A DNA stretch of 64,000 bases from Alphaproteobacteria bacterium (GCA_963555825.3 CAUVXB020000002.1:1088001-1152000); one strand, 5' to 3'. Shown: positions 12,887-33,513, counted from the first letter of the stretch. Notes: a model not told the origin generated them from the letters alone. Translations and numbers: made by a program.

Positions 12887-12887
12887 T

Positions 12888-13886: not shown

Positions 13887-14099
13887 TCACTCCCAGATCG
13901 GCTTACCGCTCCCCGGCAACCCATAGGCCGGCCATTTCTCGGTCACGGTGCGGACGATGCCTTCCGAAGCGCCGAAGCGCTGGGCGACCGAGAGGTTGGC
14001 GCTTTCGAACAACACCGCGTCGGCGGCGTCGAGGCCCGCCGCGACGGCGTGGCGCACGAGATCGTCAAGCAGGGCGAGGGGATCGAAGGGCTGGGGCAT
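13887..14099 (-). pseudogene. In-frame chimera of a pmbA 5' fragment and a ubiD 3' fragment (70 aa)
   Basis: LDDLVRHAVAAGLDAADAVLFESANLSVAQR matches the PmbA N-terminus; [22 protein letters not shown] matches the UbiD C-terminus. Confidence 0.85.
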
Positions 14100-14409
14100 C
14101 AGAAGACCGCTGGAACTGTGAATGTCGCCCGCCGTATATAAGAGAGTCTGCACCGATCAGCAACCAACCAATGCGGATTACGCTATTCCTTGTCTCGGGA
14201 TCGAAATCTTTGTGAAGCGACTCTTTCGCGAAGGTATCGCGGAAGGCTCTCGCGAATCTCCGGCGGCATGGCATCAAGAACCTTGGCACTCAAAGGCCGA
14301 GTGCGTTTCTCCTCGGGCAAATACTCTTGAGAAAGAATCAACCTGAAGTCATCAAGTCTCTTGGACAGCGAATCGATTCTCTCAAAGATTGAAGTGAGTT
14401 CCCGCTCTA

Positions 14410-15581
14410 GTGTCCCGATTCCGAAGTTCGCATGATTTTCGCCTGCTGTTCAGCGATTTCGATTGTTCGGAGGCAGGGCTGGATGGCGCTCGGATGTCAT
14501 CGGCGGATTTGGTCCATTTGAAGGGTTTGGGGTTCTGGTTTGCGTGTCGATGTAGTCGAGGATGGTGCGCTCCAACTCCTTGGTGGAGCGATGGACGCCG
14601 CGCCTGATCTGCTTGTCGGTCAGCAGCCCGAACCCGCTCGACCTGGTTCAGCCAGGAGGCGCTGGTGGGTGTGAAATGGGCCTGCCAGCGCGGCCGTTTG
14701 GCGAACCAGTCGCGGATCGCCTTGGTCTTGTGGGTCCCGTAGTTGTCCATGACGATGTGGATGTCGAGATCAGCAGGGACGTTCGCCTCGACGAGGTCGA
14801 GGAATTTGCGGAACTCTCGGGCCCGATGGCGCGGGAAACATTTGCCGATGATCTCTCCCGTGGCGATGTCGAGGGCCGCGAAGAGAGAGGTCGTGCCGTG
14901 GCGCTTGTAGTCGTGGCTGCGCCGCTCCGCCTGCCCGGGGCGCATCGGCAAGAGGGGCTGGGAACGGTCCAGGGCCTGGATCTGGCTCTTTTCGTCGACA
15001 CAGAGAACCAGGGCACGATCCGGCGGCGCCAAATACAGACCGACGATGTCGCGGACCTTCTCCACGAAGAAGGGATCGCTCGACAGCTTGAAGGTCTCCG
15101 AGCGATGCGGCTGCAAGCCGAAGGCCCGCCAGATGCGATGAATGGTCGAGGGCGCGTGGCCGCTCGCCCGCGCCATCGAGCGAAGGCTCCAATGGGTCGC
15201 GTCCGGCGGCGTCTCTTCCAGCGTCAGCCGGACCGCTTCCGCGATGGCGTCATCGCCGATTTGACGCGGCGCGCCGGGGCGGGGTTCGTCGTACAGACCG
15301 TCGAGGCCCTCCGCCGCATAGCGGCGACGCCACTTGCCCACGGTGTCCGCGCTCGCCTCGAGACGAACGGCGATCTCCTTGTTCTCCAACCCTTCCGCCG
15401 CCGCCAAGACGATCCGAGCCCGCCGCGCAAGCCCCTGCGACGTCTTGCGACGACGAGACAGCGCCTCCAATTCGGCGCGCTCGTCATCGCTCAAAGAGAT
15501 CGTCACCGCCACTCTCGCCATCAATCGCGCCTCCTAAAAACAAATAGAGACATAATCATATCAATTTATCGATCAGGACAC
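14410..15581 (-). mobile_element. IS630-family element (single-ORF type), copy 1, frameshifted near the transposase 3' end
   Basis: Ends GTGTCC...GGACAC with duplicated TA in CTAG; same element as 45487-46665 but about 7 bp shorter. Confidence 0.9.
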
Positions 15582-16383
15582 TAGCGTCGCTGAAGAGAGT
15601 TTCCCTCCTTTGAAATAGTTCTATTGTTGAGTCTTTGACAGACCCAGAAGCCAATAAAACTGTCCAGCAAATTTCTTTGAGCTCATTCTGGTCAAGTATC
15701 GCAAATTCACCGGTATGAAACTCCCTGATCTTATCAACGACCCGAACACCGATTTTCCCTCCTTTCTCAACATAGATACCTTCATCAAAATCTCCATCTA
15801 TAACGATGGGGTCACCTTCTTCTTGCTCGATAATTATTTCCATACCACGCCACTTAACGACCATCAGGTCATCGACTCCAATATCTTTCGAAGACACGAC
15901 ACCCAACCTGTGGGTGTAACAATTTCGTAACCTCACTAGAGATTGGATGTGATCTGAAAAATCGCACGATACATCGTAGCCAACACGCAATTCGTCAAGC
16001 TGTCTGGCAATCCCGTTGTAATCGAACTGATCCTTGAACTTTGGAAGATCAGCAGCAGCAAATTTTCCGGAAACAACATCCAGAATCAAACACACCCGAT
16101 ATATTTCTGACAAGAATACAGAAAACGTCTCTACAAGTTCTCGCAAGCCGTTCGACGTAACCCAGACGGCAAAATTATCTTTAAATTCATCAATATTGGC
16201 GTCAGTAACCTCTTCCGGCATTAGCTTGAGATTCATTCGGCTCTCCAAATGAAACTCTCGAAAATCTGGTCGCCTCGCTGCATTGAGTCCTAAACCGAGA
16301 AATACGTAGGTTCTTCGAACCCCACGCAACGCTATCTCGTGGATACGATCCATATTTATATGAATTTTGTGTTTATCGGTCAT
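15556..16383 (-). CDS. Low-GC hypothetical protein with HEPN-type RxxxxH motif; native last codons displaced by IS630
   Basis: LRNCYTHRLG; removing the IS gives the C-terminus ..[12 protein letters not shown] ending at 14382. Confidence 0.65.
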   Translation of the reverse strand: MTDKHKIHINMDRIHEIALRGVRRTYVFLGLGLNAARRPDFREFHLESRMNLKLMPEEVTDANIDEFKDNFAVWVTSNGLRELVETFSVFLSEIYRVCLILDVVSGKFAAADLPKFKDQFDYNGIARQLDELRVGYDVSCDFSDHIQSLVRLRNCYTHRLGVVSSKDIGVDDLMVVKWRGMEIIIEQEEGDPIVIDGDFDEGIYVEKGGKIGVRVVDKIREFHTGEFAILDQNELKEICWTVLLASGSVKDSTIELFQRRETLFSDASVLIDKLI

Positions 16384-16392
16384 GTACGGCCA

Positions 16393-17901
16393 TCACTCCC
16401 ACACCGGCTTGCCGCTCCCCGGCAGCCCCAGCCTTGGCCATTTTTCTGTCACCGTCCGCACCACCTCGTCGTCCATGCGGATTAGGCGGCCCCACTCGCG
16501 CTTGGTCTCGGGCGGCCATTTGGTGGTCGCGTCGAGGCCGATCTTTGAGCCCAGGCCGGCGACCGGGCTGGCGAAGTCGAGGTAGTCGATCGGCGTGTTC
16601 CGGATGATCGTGATGTCGCGCGCCGGGTCCATGCGAGTCGAGACCGCCCACATGACGTCGGCCCACGAGCGCGCGTCGATGTCGTCGTCCACCACGATGA
16701 CCCATTTGGTGTAGACGAACTGGCGCAGGAACGACCAGACGCCCATCATGACGCGCTTGGCGTGGCCGGCGTAGGCCTTCTTCATCGAGACCACGGCGAT
16801 GCGGTACGAGCAGCCCTCGGGCGGCAGCCAGAAATCGACGATCTCGGGGAACTGCTGGACCAAGAGCGGCACGAAGACCTCGTTGAGCGCCTCGCCCAAG
16901 ACCGAGGGCTCGTCGGGCGGCCGGCCGGTGTAGGTCGACAGATAGATCGGTGAGCGGCGCCGGGTGATCGCCGAGACGGTGAACACCGGGAACGGCTCGA
17001 CCGCGTTGTAATAGCCGGTGTGGTCGCCGAACGGGCCCTCGTCGGCGTAATCGCTCAGCGAGACATGGCCCTCGAGCACGATCTCGGCGGTGGCCGGCAC
17101 CTTGAGCGGCACCGTCTTGCAGCCGACCAGCTCGACCTTCTTGCCGCGCAGCAGGCCGGCGAACTGGTACTCCGACAGCGTGTCGGGCACAGGCGTCACG
17201 GCGGCGATGATGGTGCCCGGGTCGGCGCCGATGACGGCCGCCGCGGGCAGCGGCTCGCGCTTCGCTTGGCCCCAGCGGGCATGGTGCTGGGCGCCGCCGC
17301 GGTGCTTTAGCCAGCGCATCAGCGTGGTGTCGCGCCCGGTCACCTGCATGCGGTAGATACCGAGATTGTAATTGTCTTCGGGGCGCGTGCCGGGACCCTT
17401 GGTGACGACCAGCGGCCAGGTGATGAGGGGTGCGATGTCGCCCGGCCAGCAGGTCTGCACGGGCAGCGCGCCCAAGTCGATGTCGGCGCCTTCGAGCACG
17501 ACCTCCTGGCACGGCGCGGCGCCCACCGTCTTTGGCTTCATCGCCATCACGGTCCTGACCATCGGCAGCATGCCGACCGCCTCGCGCCAGCCGCCGGGCG
17601 GCTCGGGCTGCTTGAGGAAGGCGAGCGTCTCGCCGACGCCGCGCAGTTCGTGCGCCTCGCGGTCCATGCCCCAGGCGACGCGCTCGACGGTGCCGAACAG
17701 GTTGACCAGCACGGGCATGTCGTAGGCCGTGCCGTCGTCGCGCCGAACGTTCTCGAACAGCACGGCGGGGCCGCCTTCGGCGATCAGCCGGGTCTGGATC
17801 TCGGTCATCTCGAGCGCCGGCGAGACCGGCTCGGCGATGCGCACCAGCCGGCCCTCGCGCTCGAGCCGTTCGATGAAATCGCGCAAGCTGGCGTAGGGCA
17901 T
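16393..17901 (-). CDS. ubiD: UbiD-family decarboxylase
   Basis: [34 protein letters not shown]. Confidence 0.95.
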
Positions 17902-17941
17902 CGGCTAAACCGGATTCACGGCGCCGCGCGCGGATCGAGTG

Positions 17942-18403
17942 TCACGCGCCGGACGACGCGACCGGCGCGACCTTGAGGACGACGCTGTCGACACCGATCA
18001 CCGTGACCCGCGTGCCGGCCGGCATGTCGTCGCCCTCGACCTTCCAGGTCGTGTCGTCGACGCGGATCTTGCCCTGACCGTTGACGATCGGCTCGTCGAG
18101 CGTGAGCGTGCGGCCGACGTATTGCTCGCCGCGGCGGTTGAGCGACGGCTGGTCGGTCGCCGCCGGGTTGGCCCTCTGGAAGACCCGCCAGCCGACGATC
18201 GCCGAGATCGAAAGGGCGGCGAAGACGAGCATCTGAATCTGCCATGTCATCTCGGGCAGCACCAGCAGCAGGGCCCCGACGACGCCGGCCGAGACGCCGA
18301 GCCACAGGAAGATGGCGCCCGGCGCGAAGACCTCGATGACGACGAAGACGATGGCGGCTGCCCACCAGTGCCAGAAGACGATTTCCTCGATCACCGGAAT
18401 CAT
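17942..18403 (-). CDS. NfeD-family membrane protein (YbbJ-like)
   Basis: TM N-terminus, [10 protein letters not shown], adjacent to an SPFH gene. Confidence 0.9.
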
Positions 18404-19329
18404 GCGCGGTCCTTGCCGAAGGTCTCCCGCGCGATCTCGGCGATACCGGCGATCGAGCCGATCACGCTGGACGCCTCGAGCGGCAGCAGCAGGATCTTCT
18501 GGTTATCCGATTCGGCGAAGGCGCTCAGCGTCTCGATGTATTTCTGGGCGACGAAATAGTTGATCGCCTGGACGTTGCCGCTGCCGATCGCTTCCGAGAC
18601 CATGGTCGTCGCCCTGGCCTCGGCCTCGGCCTCGCGCTCGCGCGCCTCGGCGTCGCGGAAGGCGGCCTCGCGGCGGCCCTCGGCATCGAGGATGGCGGCC
18701 TGCTTCTCGCCCTCGGCCTTGAGGATCTCGGCCTGTCGGAAGCCCTCGGCTTCGAGAATGTTGGCGCGCTTCTCGCGCTCGGCCTTCATCTGCCGCGCCA
18801 TGGCTTCGACCAGGTCGCGCGGCGGCGCGATGTCCTTGATCTCGATGCGCGTCACCTTGACGCCCCAGGGCGTCGTCGCGTCGTCGACCACGGTGAGCAG
18901 CTGGGCGTTGATGGCATCGCGCTGCGACAGCAGCTGGTCGAGGTCCATCGAGCCCATCACCGTCCGGATGTTGGTCATCGTCAGGTTGATGATGGCGTTC
19001 TCCAGGTTGTTGACCTCGTAGGCCGACTTGGCGGCGTCGAGCACCTGGAAGAAGACGATGCCGTCGACCGCGACCATGGCGTTGTCGCGCGTGATGACCT
19101 CCTGGGTCGGCACTTCGAGCACGGTCTCCATCATGTTCAACTTGGCGCCGATCTGGTCGACGACCGGCGTGATCAGGTGCAGACCGGGGCGCAGCGTGCG
19201 CGTGTAGCGGCCGAAGCGTTCGATCGTGTACTCATAGCCCTGCGGCACCGTCTTGACGCCGGCGAAGACGATCACCACGGCGAAGATCAGCGCGGCGACG
19301 ACGAAGATCGAGAAAGCGGTGAATTCCAT
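18400..19329 (-). CDS. SPFH/band-7 stomatin-like protein (QmcA-like)
   Basis: [28 protein letters not shown]. Confidence 0.92.
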
Positions 19330-19462
19330 GATGCGTCCCTCCGATTTGGGCATCTGCCCGGACAGCTTGCCCTATTGTGCACAGCATCGACGCCGCGCCG
19401 TCAAGGACGCGCGTCGCGCACCCGGCGACAGCGCGCGGAGCGCGTGCTAGCTTTCCCGGCCG

Positions 19463-20293
19463 ATGACCGAGGATACGCAAATCGAAAAGCTCGCCCGCGC
19501 CACCGGCTACCCCTTTCCGGCGCCGCCGCACTCGTATCTCTTCGTCAACGGGGTGGCGCACGAGATCGTCGAGCCGGGCCGCGATCCGGTACACGACGGG
19601 CGGCTGCGCGACGGCGATGCGGTGGTGCCGGCGGCCGAGCTGCTGCGCCGCCTCGATATCGTGGGCGCCGCCGGGCTCGACGACCGGGTGCCGGTCATCG
19701 CGCACGGCTCGAACGCCTCGCCCGAGCAGCTCTGGCGCAAGTTCGGCCATATCGAGGGCGGCGTGGTGATCCCGGTGATCAAGGCGTGGCTCGCCGACCA
19801 CGACGTCGTCTACGCGACCCATTTCACGCGCTACGGCGCGATACCGGCGACGCTGGAGCGCTCGCCGGGCACCTCGGTCGAGCTCGCCGTGACCTTCCTC
19901 TCGGCGCCGCAGCTGGCGCTCATGCACGACACCGAGATCGCCGCCGTCAACTACGTCTATGGCCGGCTCGACCGTATCGCCCTCGCGCTCGACGGGCTCG
20001 GCGAGCGGGACGCGGCGTTCGTCTACCTCACGCTGCACGGCGCGTTGGCGCCCGGCGGCGCGCCGCTGGCGTTGGCGGCGCGCGCCGCGCGCGACCGCGC
20101 GTTCGAGCCGCGCACCATGCGCGCCATGCTCGGCTTCGCGCGCGACGAAGTGGCGCCCGGCATGGCGCTCGACGACTTCATCCTCGAGACCGTCGCCGAC
20201 GACGACTTGCGCAGCCAGCGCACGCAACGGCTGCGCGAGCGCCACGCCCGCGCCCCCGACTTCGCCGCCTTCGAGGTGCTCGCCGAGGGCTAG
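19463..20293 (+). CDS. Hypothetical protein, possibly gamma-glutamylcyclotransferase-like fold
   Basis: Host-like codon usage; VIAHGSNASP motif. Confidence 0.6.
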   Translation: MTEDTQIEKLARATGYPFPAPPHSYLFVNGVAHEIVEPGRDPVHDGRLRDGDAVVPAAELLRRLDIVGAAGLDDRVPVIAHGSNASPEQLWRKFGHIEGGVVIPVIKAWLADHDVVYATHFTRYGAIPATLERSPGTSVELAVTFLSAPQLALMHDTEIAAVNYVYGRLDRIALALDGLGERDAAFVYLTLHGALAPGGAPLALAARAARDRAFEPRTMRAMLGFARDEVAPGMALDDFILETVADDDLRSQRTQRLRERHARAPDFAAFEVLAEG

Positions 20294-20327
20294 GGCCTGG
20301 TTGGATCCATGACGATCGGTCGGTGCT

Positions 20328-21119
20328 CTAGTCGGTCAACTGAATCGCATCGCCCCGACGGACCACGCCTTCGCGAACGACCGCACCGTAAATCCCGGCC
20401 AACCCGCCGTGACCCCTTGCGACCTTCCGCAGCACCCGGGGATCGGCTTCGGCGGTGTCCGGGTCGAGCGTGATCATCTTGCAGCGCGGATCGCGCGCGA
20501 CGACGGTGAGCCGCACGTCGGAACCGATAGCGAGAGTTCGGCCGACGAGCCCGTCTTCGTCGAAACCCTCGCCAGACTCGAGGTTCATATAGACGTTCGC
20601 CCTGAAACGCCGGGGATCGAGCGCGGCGCTGATCTCGTCGCCAAGCTGGTCGACGGTTTGCGTGGCGATGAGCGAAACCGGGCGGCAGTCGGTCAAGGCG
20701 CGATCCGATCTCAAGAGGCTGACCTCGTGGGCGTCGTCGAGACCGTGGCGAAGCGCGGCGATCAGCGCGGGATCATCGATCGCCAGGACCTCTCCCGACG
20801 GCGTTTCGACATCGACGGCGAGATTGTCCGGATCGTCGAAGCAGGCGTTCAATCCAGGCGCCTCGTGTGCCGCTTCGGCCCAGTTGACCGGCTTCGCGGC
20901 GAGGTCCGGCTTGCGGAACCTAGGCTCGAACAGCAGCAACCGGGCCTGCTCGCGCCCGGTCAGATAAGGGAACACCTTCGCGCAAGCCGTGCTCTTGAAG
21001 GCGTAGATGCGGTCGCCGTAGATGCCGGAGAAACTCACATAGGCCTCGGCCAGCGCCTCGCCGCGCATGCTCTTGACCGGATAGCGCCACAGGCCGTCGA
21101 CCTTGCCGATCGTGCTCAT
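20328..21119 (-). CDS. MOSC-domain protein
   Basis: LWRYPVKSM, RRFRAN, RCKMITLD. Confidence 0.9.
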   Translation of the reverse strand: MSTIGKVDGLWRYPVKSMRGEALAEAYVSFSGIYGDRIYAFKSTACAKVFPYLTGREQARLLLFEPRFRKPDLAAKPVNWAEAAHEAPGLNACFDDPDNLAVDVETPSGEVLAIDDPALIAALRHGLDDAHEVSLLRSDRALTDCRPVSLIATQTVDQLGDEISAALDPRRFRANVYMNLESGEGFDEDGLVGRTLAIGSDVRLTVVARDPRCKMITLDPDTAEADPRVLRKVARGHGGLAGIYGAVVREGVVRRGDAIQLTD

Positions 21120-21222
21120 ATCCGCTGCTAACCCCTCACCTCGATGCCGCTGCGCGATGAGTATAGCGAACGTCGGTCCCAAAGACAGATTGCGATCAAT
21201 GGTGGCGTTCAACGAATGTAGG

Positions 21223-21956
21223 TCAGTCGCCGATATCGGGCGACATCGGCGCGGCGCCCAGATATTCGACGGCATAGGGGCCATCGCCGCGCGCGGCGAC
21301 GTGGCGCGCCATGTCGCCGCCGGCACGCGGCTCGCAGAGTTCGAGAACGTGGGGCCCGATCGCGAAGCTAGCGTCACGGCCTCCGCCGCCGCCACGCCGG
21401 GCGTTGGCTCGGTCCCGAGCAGCGCCGCGTAGTCGCGCGTCGCGCTGTCGAGGTCGGCGACCGCCAGGGTCAGGCGCGCCAAGCCGCGAACGCCGTTGGC
21501 GTGGACCCTGGCATTTCCCGCCGGCACGCGAACGGTGCGCTCAGTGACGTCCTCGATTAGAAAAGGCAGCGCGCCGCCGGCCGGCGCCGGGCCGTCCCGC
21601 CAGGCGACCTCGACGCCGTCGGGGCGGATGCGCGTACCCGCCACCGGCGCGCCGTAGTCGACGCCGCGCGCGTACGCGGCAGCAATGTCGGCCGCGACGT
21701 CATCCGAGGTCAGCATGAATTCCGAGAGGCCACCGCCCGCCTCGAGCATCGCCCAGCGGCGCGTTTCGGGCGCTGGCTCCCAGAACGCGAGCAGTTCGAT
21801 ATAGGCGCCGTCGGCGAACGGCACCAGCGCGTTGTGCGTCGCCCGCGCATGCCGGCCGCCGGGCGTCACCGTGAAGCCCAGCGCGCGGTACTCGGCCGTG
21901 AGCGCGTCGAGATCGCGGCCGATGACGATGACGTGGTCGATGCCCGTGATGGCCAT
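21223..21956 (-). pseudogene. VOC/glyoxalase-like protein with an apparent 1-bp frameshift near 21370
   Basis: IDHVIV, GGRH..THNALV, YIELL; the natural C-terminus (SFAIGPHVLEL..GDGPYAV) lies in another frame. Confidence 0.7.
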
Positions 21957-22067
21957 CGTCGGAGTATGGAATAGCTGGCCGATCGCCGGATACGACATTC
22001 ATTTGCCTTGTGCTAGCGTTGATGACCCATGGCAAATTTGTGCCGAAATTCTGTCGGGAGGAGCGCC

Positions 22068-22481
22068 ATGAGAATCGATGGCAATTGCTTGTGTGGCCAC
22101 GTCACATAGGAAGCCGAAGTCGATCCGGAAAGCGTGACCATCTGCCACTGCACCGACTGCCAAACGCACTCAGGGACGGCTTATGGCGTCGTTGTCGGCG
22201 TCGTCGACGAGAGTTTTCGCCTGTTGAGTGGCAATCTCAAGACTTACGAAAAGATTGCCGACAGCGGAACCGTGCGCGCCCTGGCGTTTTGCCCCGAATG
22301 CGGCACCAGGATACACGCCACCACCGTCGGTGAAGGCACGTCGTTCTTCGGCCTTCGCCTGGGCACCGTGCGCCAACGCGATAGCTTGAAACCCTGTCGA
22401 CAGGTTTGGTGCCGGTCCGCGCAGAATTGGGTCAGCGACCTGAGATCGATCCCACAGTTTGATACGCAATCGACGGGTTAG
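22068..22481 (+). pseudogene. GFA/CENP-V family protein with an in-frame TAG at 22107-22109
   Basis: GGAGGAG RBS; MRIDGNCLCGHVT*EAE..CHCTDCQ..FCPECG. Confidence 0.85.
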
Positions 22482-22508
22482 TCGGGGCGCGCCCTCGACT
22501 CGCCGAGT

Positions 22509-23260: not shown

Positions 23261-23317
23261 GTGGGGGTTCAAAACTGGACCCGACTGAAGTACCGTCGGC
23301 AACAAAGGACAAATGCC

Positions 23318-23698
23318 ATGACACGGATATTCGCGGCCGCCGCGCTGATGCTCGGGTTCGGATTGCCGGCGTTGGCTGGCTCGGACGCCGCCCTCGACGC
23401 CGAGATGGTGACGAGCGACGGGGACCTGCAAACGGCAATGAGGGCGATCTACGAGAGGGCCGGCATCTACAAGAGAGAGGGCGGCCTCGCCGGCGGCGTC
23501 TCGCAGGCCGTGATCGAATCCTTCGGCAACATCACCGTCTTGCATGTCGCCGGCAACATCGTGACGCTCGAGGCAAGCTTCCGTTGGACCCTCGACGACT
23601 CACAGAAGACCGGATCAGCCACCGGCATCTTCACCATGGAATCCGACGGCACGTCCTACAAGGCCCTCAAGCTCGAGACCGGCGGCAAGACCTACTAG
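23318..23698 (+). CDS. Secreted hypothetical protein
   Basis: AAGGA RBS; signal peptide MTRIFAAAALMLGFGLPALA. Confidence 0.7.
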   Translation: MTRIFAAAALMLGFGLPALAGSDAALDAEMVTSDGDLQTAMRAIYERAGIYKREGGLAGGVSQAVIESFGNITVLHVAGNIVTLEASFRWTLDDSQKTGSATGIFTMESDGTSYKALKLETGGKTY

Positions 23699-23712
23699 CC
23701 CGAGGATCGAGA

Positions 23713-24498
23713 TCAAAACGACGACAGAAAGTCCTCGGCCAATCGGTTGACGCGGTCGGGGAACTCCCAGGCCGGGAAACCGCCGGCGTCGGCGATGGTC
23801 GCGCGCCTCACGCGCGGCAGCAGCGTTTCGAGACGGTCGGCGGTGTCGTTGAAGTCGTCGACGTCGTGTTCGCCGTTGTAGAGCAGCACGGGCACCTCGA
23901 GCGACGCCAAGCGTCCGTCGATCGGCGCGACTGGCGCAGCTTGGCCGGCGTCGAGCCAGGGCGCGCCGGAGAACGACGCGACGATCGCCCAATGGGCCGC
24001 CGCGCGGCATTCCTCGGGGCGTGAGCGCATGACGTCGAACCAATCCGCCTCGTCGAACCACTGCCGGCGCGCCTCGGCGACCCCCGCCGTCCTGGCGGTG
24101 TCGCGGGCGCGTGCGAGTTCGCGATCGACGCTCGGCATGGCGTGGCCGGGCAGCACCGCGCCTTCGAGGATCATCGAGCGGAAGCGGCCCGCTCGCTCGG
24201 TGGCGAGCAGCAGGCCGAGCGCGGTGCCGGTATGCGTCGCCCAGTAATGGCACGTCTCGACCCCGGCGTTGGCTATAGCGCCGGCGACATGGGCGGCAAG
24301 TTCGCTGTGCCCGAATGGCCCGGGCACGTCGCTCGAGAGGCCGTGGCCGGGCAGGTCCACCAAGAGGATGCGGTAACGCGCCTTGAACGCCGCGACCTGG
24401 GCCGAAAACACCCGATGGTCGCCCGACATGCCGTGGACCATGACCAGCCACAGCGCTCCGTCGCGCGCCTCGAGGACCGTCTTGTAGCGCGCTGCCAC
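23713..24498 (-). CDS. Alpha/beta-fold protein with atypical catalytic motifs
   Basis: VHG, DLPGHG; ATHTG in place of GxSxG and AGGFP in place of AGH. Confidence 0.75.
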   Translation of the reverse strand: MAARYKTVLEARDGALWLVMVHGMSGDHRVFSAQVAAFKARYRILLVDLPGHGLSSDVPGPFGHSELAAHVAGAIANAGVETCHYWATHTGTALGLLLATERAGRFRSMILEGAVLPGHAMPSVDRELARARDTARTAGVAEARRQWFDEADWFDVMRSRPEECRAAAHWAIVASFSGAPWLDAGQAAPVAPIDGRLASLEVPVLLYNGEHDVDDFNDTADRLETLLPRVRRATIADAGGFPAWEFPDRVNRLAEDFLSSF

Positions 24499-24546
24499 GC
24501 TATTCAATTACCCGTCCGGCGACGATGTCGGTCTAGACGATCAGGC
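24488..24546 (-). repeat. Direct-repeat copy of the ubiA 3' end (partner at 25968-26026)
   Basis: About 52/59 nt identical by hand alignment. Confidence 0.9.
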
Positions 24547-24835
24547 ATAGAATTCGTCGAGTGCCAATCGGTGACATGGGCTACTTCAGACCCCAAAGCC
24601 TTCGTCTGATCTCAGAGCACAACGGTTCCCATCCGGATCAGAGAACTCAGCGGTCGTTCCCCATTCGTAGTGGCTTACTTCGATGGTCACACCTTTGCTC
24701 CTCAACTCGGTGCAAACCGCATCGACGTTCGGCACATTGAAGCGAAACTTTGTTGGGCATTGGTCGATGGGTTTAACATTTGAGTGCGAATAACCGCCAG
24801 TCTCGATCATCAGGTAGACGCCGCCCAGTTCAAAG

Positions 24836-25590
24836 CTTGCCTATCCGGTTATCACCCACACCCACTATATGTAGTGTGTCTCCTTGGACTGCAGGCAAGG
24901 GCCGGCGCAGGCGCATTGAGGAGGCGATCCGGCTAATTCTTGATTGTTCTGAAAACCGAACCGGAGTTTAATTCACGTCACGTACTTAACATCGGGGGAC
25001 GGAACGGTGGCGACCAAGGGAAAAACGAAGAAACCCACGGCCAGACGGGAAGCTGCTGATGAAACGACATCGTCTGAGCGATTGACGGCACTAGTCGAAG
25101 AAAGCGACGCGCTGGCACGAATCGTTGCGAAGAACCCGTCCGCGCCTGTTAGTCTCCTGCGCGTTTTGAGTCGCAGCGAAGACGAAGCGACACGCAAGAA
25201 CGTGATCCTCAATCCGTTTACTCCATATGACGTATTGAGCGAACTTGAAAACCAGTTCACAGAGCTATTTGTGAATAATCCGGCACTCGAATCCTACAAT
25301 TCAATGAAGCTCTGATTTCCTGGAATATTCCATCGGTGTCGTTCACCTCCGATTTCAGATAAATTTCAATGAAGTGACGGTCCTTTATGCAACGTGGCGT
25401 TTTGCCAAATCCGACTCAATGATTAGGATTTCCACCACGCTAAAGTGTCGCCTAAAAGCCGCTACAATGCCGTCCGAGTCCCTGCTCGGCATCGCCGGAG
25501 ATATCTCCGCTTCGACCTGCACCGAGCTTTACTCAGGAAAATGGGTGCACACTACATATAGTGGGTGTGGGTGATAACCGGATAGGCAAG
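24836..25590. mobile_element. Non-autonomous IS1595-type element (mobile insertion cassette) with a passenger gene
   Basis: Perfect 43-bp TIRs CTTGCCTATCCGGTTATCACCCACACCCACTATATGTAGTGTG; 8-bp TSD GTTCAAAG; no transposase. Confidence 0.9.
25007..25315 (+). CDS. Passenger protein with LRV/HEAT-like repeats
   Basis: VAKNPSAP..L..L, VILNPFTP..L..L, NNPAL periodicity. Confidence 0.6.
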   Translation: MATKGKTKKPTARREAADETTSSERLTALVEESDALARIVAKNPSAPVSLLRVLSRSEDEATRKNVILNPFTPYDVLSELENQFTELFVNNPALESYNSMKL

Positions 25591-25979
25591 GTTCAAAGCA
25601 CGTTAATTGCTCGCCAGGTCGATTTATCTCGAAGAGGAGATCCAATCCGAGAATGTCGCCGTAGAAATTTACGCATTCTGGATATTTCTCGGTGTAAAGA
25701 ATGAGTCCAGCCTTGGAGAAATCCATGAGTCTACTCCGGGTATCCTCGGACAAGTGAATACTTGATAAAATATGCGAGGCTTTTTAGTCAAGTGAAAACT
25801 TGGTATATTATGATGACACGGGCAACCGACGTTAAGACGGCTGGATGAAGTGCTAACCAGCGCTCATATGACGGAGTGCGAATAATTTCAGTGCGTTAGT
25901 ATTGCCGTATGCGGAAAGGATGTTCCCCCTAGGCGCAAAATCCATCCATCTGTCGGCAATTGGCGCACGCGCTGCCACG

Positions 25980-26903
25980 CTAACCAATCACCCGTCCGGC
26001 GACGATGGCGGCGAAGACGATCAGGCCGAGCCATTTGTTCGACTTGAATTTAGCCAGGCAGTCGGCCGGCGCGTCGATGTCGACCCGCGCCGCCTGCCAG
26101 GCGAGCTGGGCGGCGGCCAGGCCGAGGCCGATATAGAACGGCCAGGCGAGACCGGCCAACCAGCCGGCGACGCCGATCAGGGCGGCGGCGGCGCAATAAA
26201 AGGCGTAGAGCCAGGGCCGGGTCGCCTCGCCCAGCCTGCGGGCCGAGGACTTGACGCCGATCAGCGCGTCGTCCTCTTTGTCCTGATGCGCATAGATCGT
26301 GTCGTAGCCGAGCGTCCAGGCGATGCCCGCGGCGTAGAGCGCGATTGGCGGCGCATCGACGGTCCCGGTCACCGCCGCCCAGCCCACCAGCGCGCCCCAG
26401 TTGAAGGTCAGGCCGAGCCACGCCTGGGGCCACCAGGTGATGCGCTTCATGAAGGGATAGAAGCCGATCAGCGGCAGCGAGGCGATGCCGAGCCAGATCG
26501 CCACGGTGCCGAGCTGGACCAGGATGGCGAAGCCAATCGCGAGCAGAACGCCGAGCAAGACGAGGGCCTGGGTGAGCGAGACGTCGCCGCTCGGCAGCGG
26601 CCGTGTCGCGGTGCGCGCGACGCGGCCGTCGATGTCGCGGTCGGCGATGTCGTTGACCGTGCAGCCGGCGCCGCGCATGACCAGCGCGCCGACCGCGAAC
26701 AACGCCATGAGCCACGGGTCCGGCCAGCCGGGCGCGGCGAGCGCCAGGCTCCACCAGCACGGCCACAACAGCAGCCAGGTGCCGATCGGCCGGTCGAGCC
26801 GCATGAGCCGGGCATAGGGCCGTACCGGCGCCGGCGCGTAACGGTCGAGCCAGCCGCCGACCGCGATGTCGGTGCGCGCTGCTGCCTGGGCGATCTTGGG
26901 CAT
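25980..26903 (-). CDS. ubiA: 4-hydroxybenzoate polyprenyltransferase
   Basis: RLDRPIGTWLL, NDIADRDID, YDTIYAHQDKEDD. Confidence 0.95.
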   Translation of the reverse strand: MPKIAQAAARTDIAVGGWLDRYAPAPVRPYARLMRLDRPIGTWLLLWPCWWSLALAAPGWPDPWLMALFAVGALVMRGAGCTVNDIADRDIDGRVARTATRPLPSGDVSLTQALVLLGVLLAIGFAILVQLGTVAIWLGIASLPLIGFYPFMKRITWWPQAWLGLTFNWGALVGWAAVTGTVDAPPIALYAAGIAWTLGYDTIYAHQDKEDDALIGVKSSARRLGEATRPWLYAFYCAAAALIGVAGWLAGLAWPFYIGLGLAAAQLAWQAARVDIDAPADCLAKFKSNKWLGLIVFAAIVAGRVIG

Positions 26904-26916
26904 GGTAGGCTCCACT

Positions 26917-27675
26917 ATGCGAGACGTTCCGCCACGCCGTCAACGCGCGCCCCGCCTGTTCGTCGACGCGCCGCTCGCCGCCGGGGCGGCGCTCGCGCTC
27001 GCGCCGCCACAGGCGCATTACGTGACCCGGGTGATGCGCCGCAAGCCGGGCGATGCACTCATGCTGTTCAACGGTCGCGACGGCGAATGGCGCGCCGAGA
27101 TCGAGGCGGCGCGCAAGGGCTGCGCGGTGAACGTCGTCGAATGCAGCCGCGCGCAGGCCGCCGGCCCCGACGTCTGGCTCGTCTTCGCAGCCGTCAAGCG
27201 CGCGCCGATCGACCTGATCGCCACCAAGGCGACCGAGCTCGGCGTTGCCGCCCTGTGCCCCGTCACCACACGGCACACCGCGGTCGGCCGCGTCAACCTC
27301 GACCGATTGCGCGCCAACGCGGTCGAGGCGGCCGAGCAGTGCGGCCGCCTGGATGTGCCCGATTGCCGCGCCCCAGCCGCGTTCGACGACCTGATCGCCG
27401 GCTGGCCGGAAGGGCGCCGTGCCCTCGTGTGCGACGAGACCGGCGGCGGCGCGCCAATCGCCCAGGCGCTCGCCGAGGCCGCGCGCGAGCCCGCGACGCC
27501 CTGGGCGATCGTTTCCGGACCCGAAGGCGGTTTCGCCGACGATGAAATCCGCGCGCTCACCGCGTTGCCGGGCGCGCTTCGCGTCGGCCTCGGCCCGCGC
27601 ATTCTGCGCGCCGAAACCGCGGCGCTCGCCGCCCTCGCCTGCTGGCAGGCTGCGCTCGGCGATTGGTCCGCCTAA
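26917..27675 (+). CDS. rsmE: 16S rRNA m3U1498 methyltransferase
   Basis: KATELG, AAEQCGR, GPEGGF, LGPRILRAETA. Confidence 0.95.
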   Translation: MRDVPPRRQRAPRLFVDAPLAAGAALALAPPQAHYVTRVMRRKPGDALMLFNGRDGEWRAEIEAARKGCAVNVVECSRAQAAGPDVWLVFAAVKRAPIDLIATKATELGVAALCPVTTRHTAVGRVNLDRLRANAVEAAEQCGRLDVPDCRAPAAFDDLIAGWPEGRRALVCDETGGGAPIAQALAEAAREPATPWAIVSGPEGGFADDEIRALTALPGALRVGLGPRILRAETAALAALACWQAALGDWSA

Positions 27676-27698
27676 CGTGTCGCCGCGTCTATTAAACA

Positions 27699-27793
27699 TA
27701 AGCAGTATATATTTAATTCGCTCAATGGCCTTCGTCGGGGCGCTCCGGCTTGGACGCGACACGTCCAATCGGCAAGAAAATATATACTGCTTA
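27699..27793. repeat. AT-rich insert bounded by a perfect 16-bp inverted repeat, followed by a second copy of the rsmE 3' end (27811-27837)
   Basis: TAAGCAGTATATATTT / AAATATATACTGCTTA; GCTGCGCTCGGCGA(T/C)TGG is repeated. Confidence 0.8.
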
Positions 27794-27837
27794 CAATTAT
27801 CAGGGTGGCTGCTGCGCTCGGCGACTGGCGCGATTGA

Positions 27838-28308
27838 CTACAGATCGAATTCCAACCGGGGGCCGATCTCGGTGAAGCCATAGCGCTTGTAGAAGTCGAC
27901 CGTGCGCTGCCAGCGCGGCAGATCGGGCGCGCCGACTTCGATCATGCGCTAGCCGCGCGCGCGGCCGAACGCGGCGGCGGCGTCGGTCAGCTTGGCGGCG
28001 ACCCCGGCCGAGCGATGGTCGGGCCGGACGTAGAGCTCGGAGATCTCGCCGAATCGGCCACGCGCGTAGATCGCGGCGCATTCATTCAGCGTCAGCACGC
28101 CGATCGCCCGGCCGTCCCGGGTTTCCGCCAGATACGCCCAAACGTCGTCGCCGCCCAGCAGCCCGGCGGCGACCGGCATGAGCTCGTCGACGGTCAGGGT
28201 CCCGGCATAGGAGGGCACCAGCTCGAGCAGCAATTCGAACACCAGCGTGGCCACCGTCGCGGCATCCTCGGGCGTCGCCTGGCGGACGGCGATGTCGGGC
28301 GTGGTCAT
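27838..28308 (-). pseudogene. GNAT acetyltransferase with an in-frame TAG at 27949-27951
   Basis: ELYVRPDHRSAGVA; the frame resumes RMIEVGAP..FYKRYGF after the stop. Confidence 0.85.
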
Positions 28309-28319
28309 CGCCGGCCTCC

Positions 28320-29663
28320 TCAATACGGCCCCGGGACGATCTCGCTGCCGTCGAAGAAGCGCGCCGGGCGGAAGCGGGCGAGGTCGTGGCCGACTGGGCG
28401 GCCGGTCAGCAGGTCGGCCATGACGCGGCCGATCGCCGGGCCGATGCCGAAGCCGTGGCCGCTCAGGCCGGTCGCGTGGTAGAGCCCCGGCAAACCGGGT
28501 TCCTCGCCGAGGGTGGGCACCGCGTCGGGCGTCACGTCGATCATGCCGGCCCAGGCCTCGGCGAGCTTGACGCCGGCCAGCGCGGGAAAGCGCCGGGGCA
28601 GGCGGTCGACGATGCGCTTGACGACGAGCGGCGAAGGCGCCGGGTCGAGCACGCGCATGCGCTCGAACGGGCTCACGGCATCGGCCGACCAGCGGCGCGG
28701 CGTGCCCCAGGCGCCGGGATAGCCCTTGGGCGCGGCTGGGTGCAGATGCACGTCCTTGTCCGACGTCCTCATGACCTTGAGGAACTTGACGAAGTATTTG
28801 AACGAGTCGGGCGACAGATAGTGGTCGGCTCCGTCGCCGGTGGCGACCGTGTAGCCGCCGTCGGCCCGGCGCCGCAGCGCGAGGCCGGGGGTCGAGAGGT
28901 TGTTCTCGTAAGGCGCCGCCGGCGCCGGCTCGGTGCGCGCCGCGGTCGAGCGGACCGCGAGCTGCGGCAGGTCGACGCCGGCGTTGGCCGCGAAATGGCT
29001 CGACCAGACGCCGGCGGCAAGCAGCACGCGGTCGCAGCGCACCCGGCCCCGCTCGGTCACGACGCCGGCGACGCGGCCCGCGGAGACGTCGAGCGCGCGG
29101 ACCGCGCAGTCTTCGATGACGATGGCGCCCGACCCGCGCGCCGCCCGGGCGAGCGCCGGCACCGCGACCGATGGCTCGGCGCGGCCGTCGGTCGCGGTCA
29201 CCATGGCGGCGATCCAATCGCCGCCGAGACCGGGGAAGCGCGCCGCGACCTCTTCCTTGGTGAGCATCGCGGTGTCGAGCTGGTGCTGTTTGGCGAGCTC
29301 GTGCCAGCCCTCGTGTTTGCCGAGCTGCGCTTGGTCGTCGATCAGATAGATGCAGCCTGAGGCTGTGAAGGCGAGAACGGCCTCGCCGGTCTCGGCCGCC
29401 AGGCCGCGCCAGATACGGTTGGCCTCCATCATGATCGGCAGCTCGGCCCGGTCGCGGCCCTGCTGGCGCACCCAGCCCCAGTTGCGGCTCGACTGCTCGC
29501 CGGCCACGCGGCCCTTCTCGCAGAGCAGGACCTTGGTCCCGTGGCGCGCCAGGAAATAGGCGGTCGCGGTGCCGGCGATGCCGGCGCCGACGATAGCGAC
29601 GTCGACTGCCTCGGGCAGCGCGTCGGCGAAGGCGATGGGTGAGCGCTCGGTGATCGTCGGCAT
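28320..29663 (-). CDS. FAD-dependent oxidoreductase (D-amino acid oxidase family)
   Basis: GAGIAG, EQSSRNWGW, SGHGFGIGP. Confidence 0.9.
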   Translation of the reverse strand: MPTITERSPIAFADALPEAVDVAIVGAGIAGTATAYFLARHGTKVLLCEKGRVAGEQSSRNWGWVRQQGRDRAELPIMMEANRIWRGLAAETGEAVLAFTASGCIYLIDDQAQLGKHEGWHELAKQHQLDTAMLTKEEVAARFPGLGGDWIAAMVTATDGRAEPSVAVPALARAARGSGAIVIEDCAVRALDVSAGRVAGVVTERGRVRCDRVLLAAGVWSSHFAANAGVDLPQLAVRSTAARTEPAPAAPYENNLSTPGLALRRRADGGYTVATGDGADHYLSPDSFKYFVKFLKVMRTSDKDVHLHPAAPKGYPGAWGTPRRWSADAVSPFERMRVLDPAPSPLVVKRIVDRLPRRFPALAGVKLAEAWAGMIDVTPDAVPTLGEEPGLPGLYHATGLSGHGFGIGPAIGRVMADLLTGRPVGHDLARFRPARFFDGSEIVPGPY

Positions 29664-29729
29664 GCGGCCGTCTCGCGCCTTTCGGGAAGCTGACTGGGGT
29701 TGGGGTGTACCGCCGCCCGGGTCGGGCGG

Positions 29730-29798
29730 TCAACCTTCGCCGGTCTCGACGACGCCGTCGGCGGCCGGCCGGTTGACCTCGCCGGCGCCGTAACCGAA
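29730..29798 (-). repeat. Second copy of the CoA-transferase 3' end (partner from 31028)
   Basis: 27/28 nt identical at the stop end; encodes GYGAGEVNRPAADGVVETGEG* versus GYASEDVDRLVSAGVVETGEG*. Confidence 0.85.
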
Positions 29799-29952
29799 CG
29801 AGCGTCTTCGGATACCGGATTGCACCCTGGCCGGATCTCCGACGCACCGAGCGCCCCATCCCAAGACCCCGTGTAAGTTGTAGAATAAGAATTTAAATGA
29901 AACTACGGTCGTGCTACCGTCTTGGGCGCTTGGGAGGAATCATCTGGGAAAT

Positions 29953-30004
29953 CCCGGAGAAAGCCTCTCGCGCGAAGACCCGGAGAAAGCCTCTCGCGCG
30001 AAGA
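29953..30004 (+). repeat. Perfect 26-bp tandem duplication upstream of the GH18-like gene
   Basis: CCCGGAGAAAGCCTCTCGCGCGAAGA x2. Confidence 0.9.
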
Positions 30005-30017
30005 AAGGGGTATCGAC

Positions 30018-30917
30018 ATGAACGCAATCACATCAGGAATCTATGGCGGCGGGCCATTCTATTCGGGTGGATGCGCCGTCATCGACGATCTGAAAGGCTC
30101 GGGATATACCACGGTGGTCGCCTGGGCCGTCCATGTTAAAGCGTCGGGCGACCTCGTCTTCAATGACCCGACCATTGTCAGCCGCGGCCAGTACGTCGGC
30201 GATTCTGCCTGGCCGGGGCTCCTTGCGGCGCTCAAGCAGGGCGCCACGTCCGTGAACCGGCTTCTGATTTCCATCGGTGGGTGGGAAGTCGGGGACTTTC
30301 CCAACGTCAAAGCCCTGATTTTCCCCAACCCGGGCAATTATCCCGACAATCCTCAAATAGGTTCAAACACCATACTCTATCAGAACTTCCAGGCGCTGAA
30401 GAACGCCATCCCGACCATCGATGGCGTCGACTTCGACGACGAGACGCTCTACGACCAGCCAACCACCGTCGCGTTCAGCCAAATGCTGAACACGCTTGGT
30501 TACCAAGTGACATTCTGCCCGTACACCAACGTTTCCTTCTGGGTCGATTGCCTTTACCAACTCAACACCGCGACGCCAAACCTTGTAACCGGCTTCAACC
30601 TCCAGTGCTATGCCGGTGGAGCGGGGAATGATCCTCAGCATTGGATCACGGCCATTCAGGAAAAAATGGTCAGCGGTTTCGATGCCAAAGGGTTCGTCTA
30701 TCCGGGCCTCTGGTGCATCCATAACGGCTGCGATTCCGGCGACTGCCCCGACAGAATCTCCAGTCAGTTCAGCTCTTGGCGGCCCGACGGCATCCAAGGC
30801 GGGTGGATCTGGCTGTACGACGACATTCAGAAATGCGAGGACTCGGCAGCCTGTGGTTCGGGTGTCTCAATGAACGCCGCCGCTTACGCCAGCGCGATCG
30901 TGACCGGTCTAGGGTAA
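30018..30917 (+). CDS. GH18-like glycoside hydrolase
   Basis: SIGGW and catalytic DGVDFDDE (DxxDxDxE); AAAGGGG RBS. Confidence 0.75.
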   Translation: MNAITSGIYGGGPFYSGGCAVIDDLKGSGYTTVVAWAVHVKASGDLVFNDPTIVSRGQYVGDSAWPGLLAALKQGATSVNRLLISIGGWEVGDFPNVKALIFPNPGNYPDNPQIGSNTILYQNFQALKNAIPTIDGVDFDDETLYDQPTTVAFSQMLNTLGYQVTFCPYTNVSFWVDCLYQLNTATPNLVTGFNLQCYAGGAGNDPQHWITAIQEKMVSGFDAKGFVYPGLWCIHNGCDSGDCPDRISSQFSSWRPDGIQGGWIWLYDDIQKCEDSAACGSGVSMNAAAYASAIVTGLG

Positions 30918-31027
30918 ACGATCACATTGCCAGCGGCGCCGAACCAGTCGTTGCACCCGACCGGAGTTAGCGGTCGGAAGTGGTCCTGAAATCAACGTAA
31001 CTTGCCGCGCCTTTCCGGTCGCCGGCT

Positions 31028-32260
31028 TCAGCCTTCGCCGGTCTCGACGACGCCGGCGGAAACCAGGCGGTCGACGTCCTCGGACGCGTATCCCAACAGG
31101 CCCTCGAGGATCTCGCGGCTGTGCTGGCCCAGGTTCGGCGCCGGGTTGGCTGGCAGCTCGGGTGCCGCCGACATATGCGGCGCCGAGCGCGCGAAGCCGA
31201 AGCTGCCGAATTCGGGATCCTCGATCGGCATGATCATGCCGCGTGCCGCCACGTGCGGGTCGGCGAAGACGTCTTCGGCGTTGTAGATCGGGCCGCAGGG
31301 GATGCCTTGGGCGTTCAGCGTCTCGACCGCCTCGTCGCGGCTCAGCGTGCCGAGCCAGTCCTTGATGACCGGTTGCAGAAACTCGACGTTGGCCGAACGC
31401 GCGGTGCCCGAATCGGCGCGTTGGTCCTCGATCAGGTCGTCGCGCCCCATGGCGGTGCACAGCCGCGCCCAGATGATGTTGTCGGGGATGTTGATGGCGA
31501 TATAGCCGTCTTTGGCCCGGTAGGCGCCGCGCGGCCACAGGTTGCGCGGCTTGCCGCGTTCCGGGCTCTGGCCGGCGACCGAATAGAGCGCAATCATGCT
31601 TTCGTTGAGCGCCAGCATGTTGTCGAACATGGCGGAGTCGACCAATTGGCCCTGGCCGGTGCGTTCACGCATGAACAGCGCCTGCATGATGCCGTAGGCG
31701 GTGACCTGGCCCGAATAGATGTCGGCCATGCCGTAGATCGTCCAGGACGGCGGCTTGTCGGCGAAGCCGACCAGATTCATGATGCCGCTCATCGCCTCGG
31801 CGACGATGTCGAAGGCGGGCCGGTCGCTGTACGGGCCGCGGTAGCCCTCGAGCCGGCCGAAGCCCGAGATGATCGACCAGATCAGGCGCGGGTGCTTGGC
31901 GCGCATCTCCTTCTGGCCAAGGCCCATACGCGTCATCGAGCCGGGCCTCAGGTTCTCGACGACGACGTCGGCGGTGGCGGCCAGCCGGCGGAACACCTCC
32001 TGGCCGCCGTCGCTTCGGATGTTCAGCGCCAGGCTCTTCTTGTTGCGGTTATAGGACATGAAACCGGCCGCCTTGCGCTTGCCGTCGCGCTCGGCGAAGG
32101 GGGGCATGGCGCGGCGCGGATCGCCGGTGCCGGGGCGCTCGATCTTGATCACCTCGGCGCCGGCGTCGGCCAGCAGCATGGTGCAGTAGGGGCCCGCCAT
32201 GTACTGCTCGAGCCCGACCACCCGGATGCCCGAGAGCGGGCGCTGCACGTCGTCGGCCAT
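31028..32260 (-). CDS. CoA-transferase family III (CaiB/BaiF)
   Basis: AGPYCTMLLAD.GAEVIKIE, NRNKKS, ENLRPG, APNLGQH. Confidence 0.92.
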   Translation of the reverse strand: MADDVQRPLSGIRVVGLEQYMAGPYCTMLLADAGAEVIKIERPGTGDPRRAMPPFAERDGKRKAAGFMSYNRNKKSLALNIRSDGGQEVFRRLAATADVVVENLRPGSMTRMGLGQKEMRAKHPRLIWSIISGFGRLEGYRGPYSDRPAFDIVAEAMSGIMNLVGFADKPPSWTIYGMADIYSGQVTAYGIMQALFMRERTGQGQLVDSAMFDNMLALNESMIALYSVAGQSPERGKPRNLWPRGAYRAKDGYIAINIPDNIIWARLCTAMGRDDLIEDQRADSGTARSANVEFLQPVIKDWLGTLSRDEAVETLNAQGIPCGPIYNAEDVFADPHVAARGMIMPIEDPEFGSFGFARSAPHMSAAPELPANPAPNLGQHSREILEGLLGYASEDVDRLVSAGVVETGEG

Positions 32261-32262
32261 GC

Positions 32263-33513
<1,251 letters not shown>

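Follow-up and report, generated by a model that had tools for sequence, protein, structure and literature searches.

The window analysed here, the whole 64,000-nt stretch CAUVXB020000002.1:1088001-1152000 of the Alphaproteobacteria bacterium assembly GCA_963555825.3, contains mini-islands in which lower-GC cargo lies between an intact conserved gene and a displaced second copy of that gene's 3′ end. These mini-islands are probably (at roughly 0.6) scars of homology-facilitated illegitimate recombination (HFIR) with chromosomal DNA of a related lineage. One locus, ubiD, displays every junction of such an event, and a displaced tail within a few kb 3′ of the intact gene marks 34 genes in this 6-Mb genome, about ten times the controls. 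In the available text of the laboratory studies, HFIR joins the incoming DNA by homology at one end and illegitimately at the other, with 3-10 bp of microhomology and an insertion coupled to a deletion; it has been demonstrated in Streptococcus pneumoniae, Acinetobacter baylyi and Pseudomonas stutzeri, with a low rate in E. coli (PMC3240628, PMC2884548). The genome (G000) comprises 6.04 Mb in two contigs (C1 and C2), and the window sits on the 3.63-Mb contig. Bare coordinates below are positions in the window.

The ubiD island can be read from the intact gene downstream along the minus strand. Intact ubiD (16393-17901, minus strand) encodes 502 aa, is covered over its full length by the Pfam domains UbiD_N, UbiD and UbiD_C, and has orthologues in 12/12 family genomes. 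A low-GC, HEPN-like cargo gene (15589-16383, minus strand; GC 0.42-0.45) starts 9 nt past the ubiD stop. It is followed by an insertion sequence (IS) of the IS630 family (about 14404-15588, minus strand), leftover low-GC cargo (14096-14403, GC about 0.51), and a 5′ fragment of pmbA (pmbA′; 13946-14095, minus strand) that repeats 12482-12631 and forms the distal end of the insert. A 141-nt stretch of this repeat (12482-12622 against 13946-14086; 81%, E 5e-32), overlooked by the sequence-only reading, adjoins the ubiD tail fragment. That fragment, the last 72 nt of ubiD plus stop (13887-13958, minus strand), is joined still to native downstream DNA with the Pfam-identified PhzF-like gene (12888-13799) and pmbA (11292-12683), together 11292-13799 on the minus strand.

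Two metagenome relatives, L086 and L087, were recovered by a PhzF query and are closer than the G-numbered family genomes. Both carry the empty site, ubiD-PhzF-pmbA with the cargo absent. L086 84-2128 aligns contiguously with 13958-11932 (89.8%); L087 1-581 aligns with ubiD 16973-16393 (90.2%), and L087 511-2147 with 13957-12275. The gene order ubiD-PhzF-pmbA is found in L086, L087 and G006, and ubiD and pmbA are adjacent, with gaps of 68-208 nt, in six family genomes (G001, G002, G005, G009, G011 and G012).

The same relatives distinguish the two tails. Positions in ubiD are given as negative offsets from the gene's 3′ end, −1 being the last base. The displaced fragment agrees with the relatives' ubiD tails at 69/72 (L086) and 66/72 (L087) positions, the tail of the intact gene (−72 to −1) at 52/72 and 58/72, respectively. 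Just upstream, between −112 and −73, intact ubiD matches both relatives at 30/40 positions, where L086 and L087 agree with each other at 39/40; between −155 and −113 it matches them at 41/43, the relatives being identical (43/43). This comparison shows the downstream fragment to be native and the tail of the intact gene foreign. The donor-derived tract takes up about the last 112 nt of the gene (16393-16504, minus strand), as placed by the drop in identity to L086 and L087. The native 40 nt from −112 to −73 are missing in both window copies. The foreign tract begins 40 nt upstream of the repeat; therefore, 40 native bases were replaced, like the insertion-plus-deletion of HFIR. A four-way alignment puts the illegitimate joint between pmbA′ and native ubiD (−72) at 13955-13958, where the two repeats overlap in a 4-nt microhomology, ATCG (gene orientation).

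The donor DNA would have been a chromosomal ubiD′-cargo-pmbA′ segment, because the insert terminates distally in a foreign piece of pmbA 5′ sequence and ubiD and pmbA are neighbours in the six family genomes; its lineage would be about 20-25% diverged in the ubiD tail. Within the 141 nt, pmbA′ is identical to the genome's own pmbA at 114 positions, to L086 at 121 and to L087 at 123, and own pmbA agrees with these relatives at 128/141 and 127/141. These figures bear on a rival history in which tail, spacer and the head of the next gene were duplicated in tandem in situ, the copies then diverged for a long time, and each of the two spacers received an insertion of its own. A joint of pmbA 5′ to ubiD 3′ sequence is formally of that type, the mismatches of the pmbA fragment (6/10/11 by codon position) have no third-position bias, and the ubiA fragment described below looks decayed. 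A duplication is nevertheless very improbable: it is contradicted at ubiD by a functional tail that is foreign and a fragment that is native, it predicts the opposite of pmbA′ being closer to L086 and L087 than to own pmbA, and it demands two extra insertions. An empty site, a donor-type tract in the anchor gene, a microhomology joint and replaced recipient DNA are all seen at ubiD (the donor tract and the joint at ubiD alone). The topology of this island is that of HFIR with related-lineage DNA, and it misfits an integrase, a transposon and an in-situ duplication.

The HFIR reading can be put as a series of steps. In the donor lineage, the conserved gene would have been followed by an accessory gene of another kind. 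The incoming DNA would pair homologously, by one of its ends, inside the conserved gene (near −112 in ubiD), which would then end in the donor version of its tail, with the donor cargo behind it. The other end would join illegitimately, by a few bases of microhomology, inside the recipient's own tail (at ubiD, from pmbA′ to −72). The native tail would persist as a fragment 3′ of the cargo, attached to its native neighbours (PhzF and pmbA, both intact, at ubiD). Neither an integrase nor a transposase would be required. A route of DNA entry and a dependence on RecA are parts of the scheme that we infer, and selection would presumably retain events that spare the gene in front of the insert as well as the region upstream of the gene behind it.

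A Campbell-type single crossover of a circularised fragment with a short tail copy has a laboratory precedent. According to the available text of PMC3240628, 56/60 E. coli recombinants sought as HFIR were 109-950-bp duplications of the homologous end, which arose when a re-circularised molecule entered by a single crossover. The resulting islet, with tail repeats on either side, could loop out through host recombination and re-enter naive relatives. This history is the better reading at C1:540667/545905 and C2:1025643/1031739, where the repeat units span the whole gene junction at 87-99% identity. At ubiD, however, the fragment left by a crossover at −112 should be 112 nt or longer and donor-type in its 5′ part; the one present begins at −72 and is native over its whole length (69/72 to L086). 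Since it is short and wholly native, a single crossover at ubiD needs a second deletion. With 59-70 nt at 77-88% identity and exact runs of about 14-24 nt at most, the repeats in the window would also be poor RecA substrates. A single crossover is judged unlikely.

A genome-wide scan for recurring gene tails, as the sequence-only reading had proposed, finds them far above internal controls rather than at background. In the lax version, the last 150 nt plus 15 nt of 4207 genes (at least 450 nt long) were used as queries and their recurrences mapped. Direct downstream recurrences within 16 kb number 39, against 4 direct-upstream, 2 inverted-downstream and 2 inverted-upstream. The strict version is a 'fragment only' filter with the same three controls; it retains 37 direct downstream tail fragments within 16 kb, at 34 genes, and the control counts, in the order just given, are 3, 3 and 4. 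In the strict set, the median repeat is 117 nt (45-346), the median spacing 2.2 kb (0.27-12 kb) and the median identity 90%, and 28/37 cargos lie under the genome GC. Gene 5′ heads are duplicated upstream as well (22 against 4, 3 and 5 in the controls), 4 of the 22 being paralogous integrase pairs. At 20 loci, the cargos hold unrelated accessory genes and many IS copies. A second locus, C2:2119709-2121031, has an empty site in G002, G006, G009 and G011, and the relatives checked show empty sites and no integrase-bearing islands, which was the other comparison called for at the outset. HFIR, one of the two routes first suggested, is thus backed directly at ubiD by the empty site, foreign tail, displaced native tail and microhomology, and statistically across the genome (37 vs 3-4). 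By analogy, the same route may have operated at ubiA, the CoA-transferase gene, rsmE and about 30 other loci. A mobile backbone shared by the cargos was considered and rejected: all-against-all BLAST of 33 cargos gave only IS copies, miniature inverted-repeat transposable elements (MITEs) and a few short common stretches.

Within the window, self-BLAST of positions 11000-33999 recovers the tail repeats of three genes. The ubiD tail (16393-16461 vs 13887-13955) matches at 80% over 70 columns (E = 3e-9), the ubiA tail (25968-26026 vs 24488-24546) over 59 nt at 88% (E = 1e-14), and the tail of a CoA-transferase gene (31028-31097 vs 29730-29799) over 70 nt at 77% (E = 1e-8). Together they make up 3/7 repeat pairs at E<1e-3. 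The repeat copies of ubiD and the CoA-transferase gene start exactly at the stop codon, the ubiA repeat also takes in 12 identical nt beyond it, and frame and stop are preserved in the tail fragments of ubiD, the CoA-transferase gene and rsmE. Three such loci inside 17.2 kb have a Poisson P of 1.4e-4. The tail duplications of ubiD, ubiA and the CoA-transferase gene are genuine and non-random. The sequence-only reading had counted four duplicated 3′ ends; these three stand at the coordinates it gave, and rsmE is only marginal, so the cases are not four equals. It was right that the anchor genes are full-length, as Pfam matches attest, and that the cargo has the lower GC (0.42-0.61 vs 0.65-0.77 in the backbone). 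The IS630 copy at ubiD and a 756-nt element at ubiA entered later; therefore each cargo (ubiD, ubiA and CoA-transferase) was a single gene before these insertions.

At ubiA, the intact gene (25980-26915, minus strand; Pfam UbiA) carries the repeat copy 25968-26026. The cargo (24547-25967, minus strand) is one VOC/glyoxalase gene running from about 25726 to 24586, with a Glyoxalase match on 24586-24810, and is split by the 756-nt element. This multi-copy element (a MITE; 24836-25591) carries inverted ends of 46 nt, lies within a target duplication of 7 bp (TTCAAAG) and has 6 further full-length genome copies at 96-100%. It and the IS630 copy look like later insertions into the cargos. The open reading frame (ORF) 25007-25315 of this non-autonomous element matches the LRV_2 leucine-rich-repeat-variant domain, not a transposase. 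The ubiA tail fragment (24488-24546, minus strand) is decayed, with an in-frame stop (CLIV*TDIVAGRVIE* vs GLIVFAAIVAGRVIG* in the gene copy), and the called start codon of an alpha/beta hydrolase gene (23713-24507, minus strand; NCBIfam PcaD-like, residues 13-261) lies within it. The homologue of this hydrolase in G004 does not adjoin ubiA. In G002, G005 and G006, ubiA stands tail-to-tail with a homologue of gene 19463-20293 at a gap of about 22-60 nt, against 5.7 kb here; therefore 5.7 kb are extra at this locus.

The third island follows an intact family III CoA-transferase gene (31028-32278, minus strand; Pfam CoA_transf_3, NCBIfam), whose tail copy is 31028-31097. Its cargo (29800-31027, plus strand; GC 0.54-0.61) has a single ORF, 29922-30917, of 331 aa. 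A GH18/EndoS-like assignment is a lead only: the Atlas clusters for the ORF carry Glyco_hydro_18 at 0.93-0.94, and searches of Pfam, NCBIfam and PADLOC gave no match. PADLOC and NCBIfam were empty for all three cargo ORFs. The displaced tail (29730-29799, minus strand) is in frame with its stop kept (SFGYGAGEVNRPAADGVVETGEG* vs LLGYASEDVDRLVSAGVVETGEG*), 66 nt upstream of a DAO gene (28320-29663). DAO homologues in relatives are 33-56% identical, and a CoA-transferase gene stands beside none of them at the 7 loci checked.

The rsmE repeat is marginal. Intact rsmE (26866-27675, plus strand; Pfam Methyltrans_RNA and PUA_4), with its tail copy at 27646-27675, is followed by an AT-rich doublet of a palindrome resembling repetitive extragenic palindromic (REP) sequences (27676-27807) and then by a possible second rsmE tail (27808-27837), the whole spanning 27676-27837 on the plus strand and recognised by sequence, frame and stop. 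An 18-mer at 27649-27666 has a second copy, differing by 1 mismatch, at 27811-27828, which 0/100 window shuffles reproduce with 2 matches, and the second copy has its frame and stop at an equal offset (QAALGDWSA* vs AAALGDWRD*). Self-BLAST at E<1e-3 does not report the repeat, and in a flank-against-flank test its score is reached by 10/300 random genome positions. The REP-like palindrome family (core AAGCAGTATA / TATACTGCTT) forms 34 genome clusters, mostly doublets 40-80 nt apart. Another cluster, C1:1325865-1326005, lies between the copies of a 112-nt gene-tail repeat. As a cause of the tail duplications the palindrome was rejected, since repeats flank only 2/34 clusters.

Decayed site-specific integrative elements, which bring along their own version of a target 3′ end and whose integrase has been lost or acts in trans, would leave the same topology of an intact gene with an imported tail and a displaced native one. 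One of the 33 cargos from the first scan, on which the recombinase counts rest, holds a tyrosine recombinase (PF00589; C1:2274019-2281323, where the repeat is 173 nt at 78%), PF00589 matches number 45 in the whole genome, and duplicated glmS tails enclose different cargos in three genera. The other 32/33 cargos lack PF00589 and the serine recombinase profile PF00239 (found in 0/33), and the window cargos match neither, the nearest match lying 103 kb away. Tail repeats are also not in excess at the island-sized distances of 16-200 kb (lax scan, 2 and 3 vs 2-6). At ubiD, the cargo terminates in a chromosomal pmbA piece, and the two boundaries, that of the foreign tract near −112 and that of the fragment at −72, stand 40 nt apart, with no common core. 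Gene heads are duplicated too, and targets and cargos are unrelated. Decayed elements of this kind are judged an improbable source of the islands. A target-site duplication likewise does not describe the repeats, which are 59-72 nt long at 77-88% identity around cargos without common ends; the 756-nt element shows a 7-bp duplication of its own. The initial statement that no cargo contains a recombinase is correct for tyrosine and serine recombinases, for which no match was found; it overlooks the IS630 transposase in the ubiD cargo and the multi-copy element in the ubiA cargo. No evidence was found for the trans-acting recombinase that had been offered as the second route. A search for competence, gene transfer agent (GTA) and integrase genes, also suggested at the start, provides context only: a ComEC-type gene is present, and profile searches of the genome gave no Ku and no GTA_TIM match. 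Many of the 45 PF00589 matches come from sets of three adjacent tyrosine-recombinase genes (e.g. C2:601578-603959, C2:2326091-2329931 and C2:3600917-3603298), which we take to resemble recombinase-in-trio elements.

The glmS gene (607 aa, GATase and two SIS domains) is the anchor whose tail is duplicated 3′ of the gene in three genera, with three different cargos. In this genome (C1:2053855-2056587; L033, L190), a 56-nt repeat encloses two unknown ORFs; in G007:C42 (L191), a 150-nt repeat at 87% encloses an MNT-HepT toxin-antitoxin pair; and in G004:C128 (L192), a 96-nt repeat at 79% encloses a gene of the metallo-β-lactamase (MBL) fold. Neither an integrase nor a Tn7-type gene is among the ORFs scanned in these islets. 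Gene tails could also be portable attachment sites for integrase-free selfish mini-islets, which we regard as a long shot. A one- or two-gene cargo would then travel with the last 50-300 nt of a housekeeping gene; at the same low odds, such islets would loop out and re-enter by host recombination alone and spread by restoring the target and by carrying an addictive or defensive gene. Their cargos would, again only as a slim chance, often be toxin-antitoxin or defence-like, as with the HEPN-like gene here and MNT-HepT behind the glmS gene of G007.

Several known systems share parts of the arrangement that we ascribe to HFIR. Prophages 21 and e14 at icd, and the streptococcal integrative mobilizable elements and cis-mobilizable elements (IMEs/CIMEs), regenerate the 3′ end of a protein-coding target and possess, or descend from elements that possess, a cognate integrase and a defined core. 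As in these icd-type elements, an intact gene with an imported tail is followed by the cargo and then by the displaced native tail, which makes an imperfect direct repeat; unlike them, the islands here have no integrase, and at ubiD the starts of tract and fragment differ by 40 nt and a piece of a chromosomal gene closes the cargo. In the minimal mobile elements of Neisseria (PMC3787668, PMC1797815), varied accessory genes occupy one slot between conserved genes and are moved by host recombination. The ubiD-pmbA slot resembles these in being empty, or holding PhzF, or PhzF and the HEPN-like gene. Exchange of the Neisseria elements takes two homologous crossovers and is not known to leave duplicated gene ends.

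Further counterparts are the arrays of Rhs, contact-dependent inhibition (CDI) and type VI secretion system (T6SS) effector-immunity genes, where, as far as the available text of PMC5361080 describes them, a new 3′ end and cargo are anchored on the conserved part and the old 3′ end is kept downstream. HFIR has been proposed there for displaced 3′ ends in T6SS/Rhs arrays, with Jackson et al. 2009 cited for rhs (PMC5361080). In those arrays, a new tail gives a polymorphic toxin another function, and an immunity gene accompanies the orphan tail; here, the ends of housekeeping genes are near-synonymous and the cargo is a separate gene. The features shared with HFIR itself are a homologous junction in a conserved gene, a microhomology joint, a short replaced recipient stretch and the lack of an element-encoded recombinase. 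Unlike the products of laboratory HFIR, the scars here arose in nature and affect numerous housekeeping genes within a single genome, the illegitimate joint lies inside the recipient tail, so that the tail is duplicated, and donor and recipient tails differ by about 20-25%. The initial suggestion of an undescribed system does not hold, since HFIR and 3′-end displacement are, in the available text of three papers, already in print and shown in the laboratory (PMC5361080, PMC3240628, PMC2884548). What is seen is a known mechanism, unusually clearly and often, with an unusual density at housekeeping genes. A limited literature search found no genome-wide account of displaced housekeeping-gene tails.

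Laboratory measurements put HFIR among rare events, and it has been invoked for a few special loci. The same scan over many genomes could estimate the rate of integrase-free, homology-anchored capture, the anchor genes used and any preference for defence or toxin-antitoxin genes. For annotation, small 3′ gene fragments beside low-GC genes need not be decayed integrase islands.

A number of observations weigh against the HFIR reading or limit its reach. Only the ubiD island is resolved, and a donor tail about 75-80% identical to the native one is a poor substrate for RecA pairing. At ubiA, the fragment rather than the gene copy is the more diverged (25/31, 25/31 and 28/33 matches to relatives, against 29/31, 29/31 and 32/33), it has the in-frame stop, and the codon positions of its 5 mismatches are 1/2/2; a donor origin and mere age would both account for this, and the fragment perhaps arrived with the hydrolase block. 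Among the relatives compared, none is near enough to tell which CoA-transferase copy is native. At C1:540667/545905 and C2:1025643/1031739, each side of the cargo has a repeat that runs from the tail through the spacer into the head or tail of the neighbouring gene. Codon positions of mismatches, examined as a sign that the fragments are allelic in origin, are not decisive: mismatches are 200/164/341 in 36 pooled rows and 29/19/66 (58% third) in the 18 rows of at least 89% identity, and true orthologues give 43-66%. The recurrence at glmS in three genera could be a site-specific hot spot. Genes were called by a heuristic based on GC at third codon positions (GC3) rather than taken from an annotation. 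The tail-fragment pattern is probably not unique to this genome, and its density here may not be unusual: in small comparison samples, 0.4 Mb of a same-family genome has 2 such fragments and 0.4 Mb of a same-class genome has 1, beside an IS cluster. A seemingly clean pair in G018 was rejected as copies of an IS256-type transposase.

The HEPN-like cargo gene lost its last 4 codons to the IS630 copy; an uninterrupted 269-aa homologue, 100% identical, exists as cluster P0001. The HEPN superfamily is marked by a helical fold and a conserved Rx4-6H motif. In the RNCxxH motif of this protein, 12 homologues show no variation at R153, C155 and H158 and almost none at N154. Its structural model has a pLDDT of 87, and 7/10 top VIA matches are HEPN by title, with Z of 8.4-9.7, under the safe level for helical bundles; the Atlas lead is RiboL-PSP-HEPN (0.85). 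A Foldseek search of the model against PDB gave nothing at E<=0.001, and the ORF has no match in Pfam, NCBIfam or PADLOC. Homologues of at most 30% identity occur in 5/400 other genomes of the class (G052 included in the count), and among homologues of at most 45% at 16 loci of many phyla in a species collection, none adjoins ubiD, pmbA or PhzF. The leftover cargo between the IS and pmbA′ has a 75-codon open frame, which has no family match in searches that included NCBIfam.

The IS630-family copy in this cargo, a secondary insertion with DDE_3 and helix-turn-helix (HTH) domains (ORF 14382-15524), has 13 further genome copies at 99%. The element also occurs in head-to-tail tandem arrays, of four copies at C1:235246-239979 and three at C1:1422085-1425633, with overlaps of about 8 nt. 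The joint of pmbA′ to the ubiD tail yields a putative 88-codon chimeric frame (13887-14153, minus strand), open and with a gene-like GC3 of 0.82. The islets C1:540667-547587 and C2:1025643-1032392 differ in content, one cargo being an FAD-oxidase gene with an IS256-type IS and the other an AsnC/decarboxylase/MFS/ArsR block. Elsewhere in the window, an SPFH/Band 7 gene (18400-19353) contains three to four 33-nt tandem repeat units at 18626-18776.

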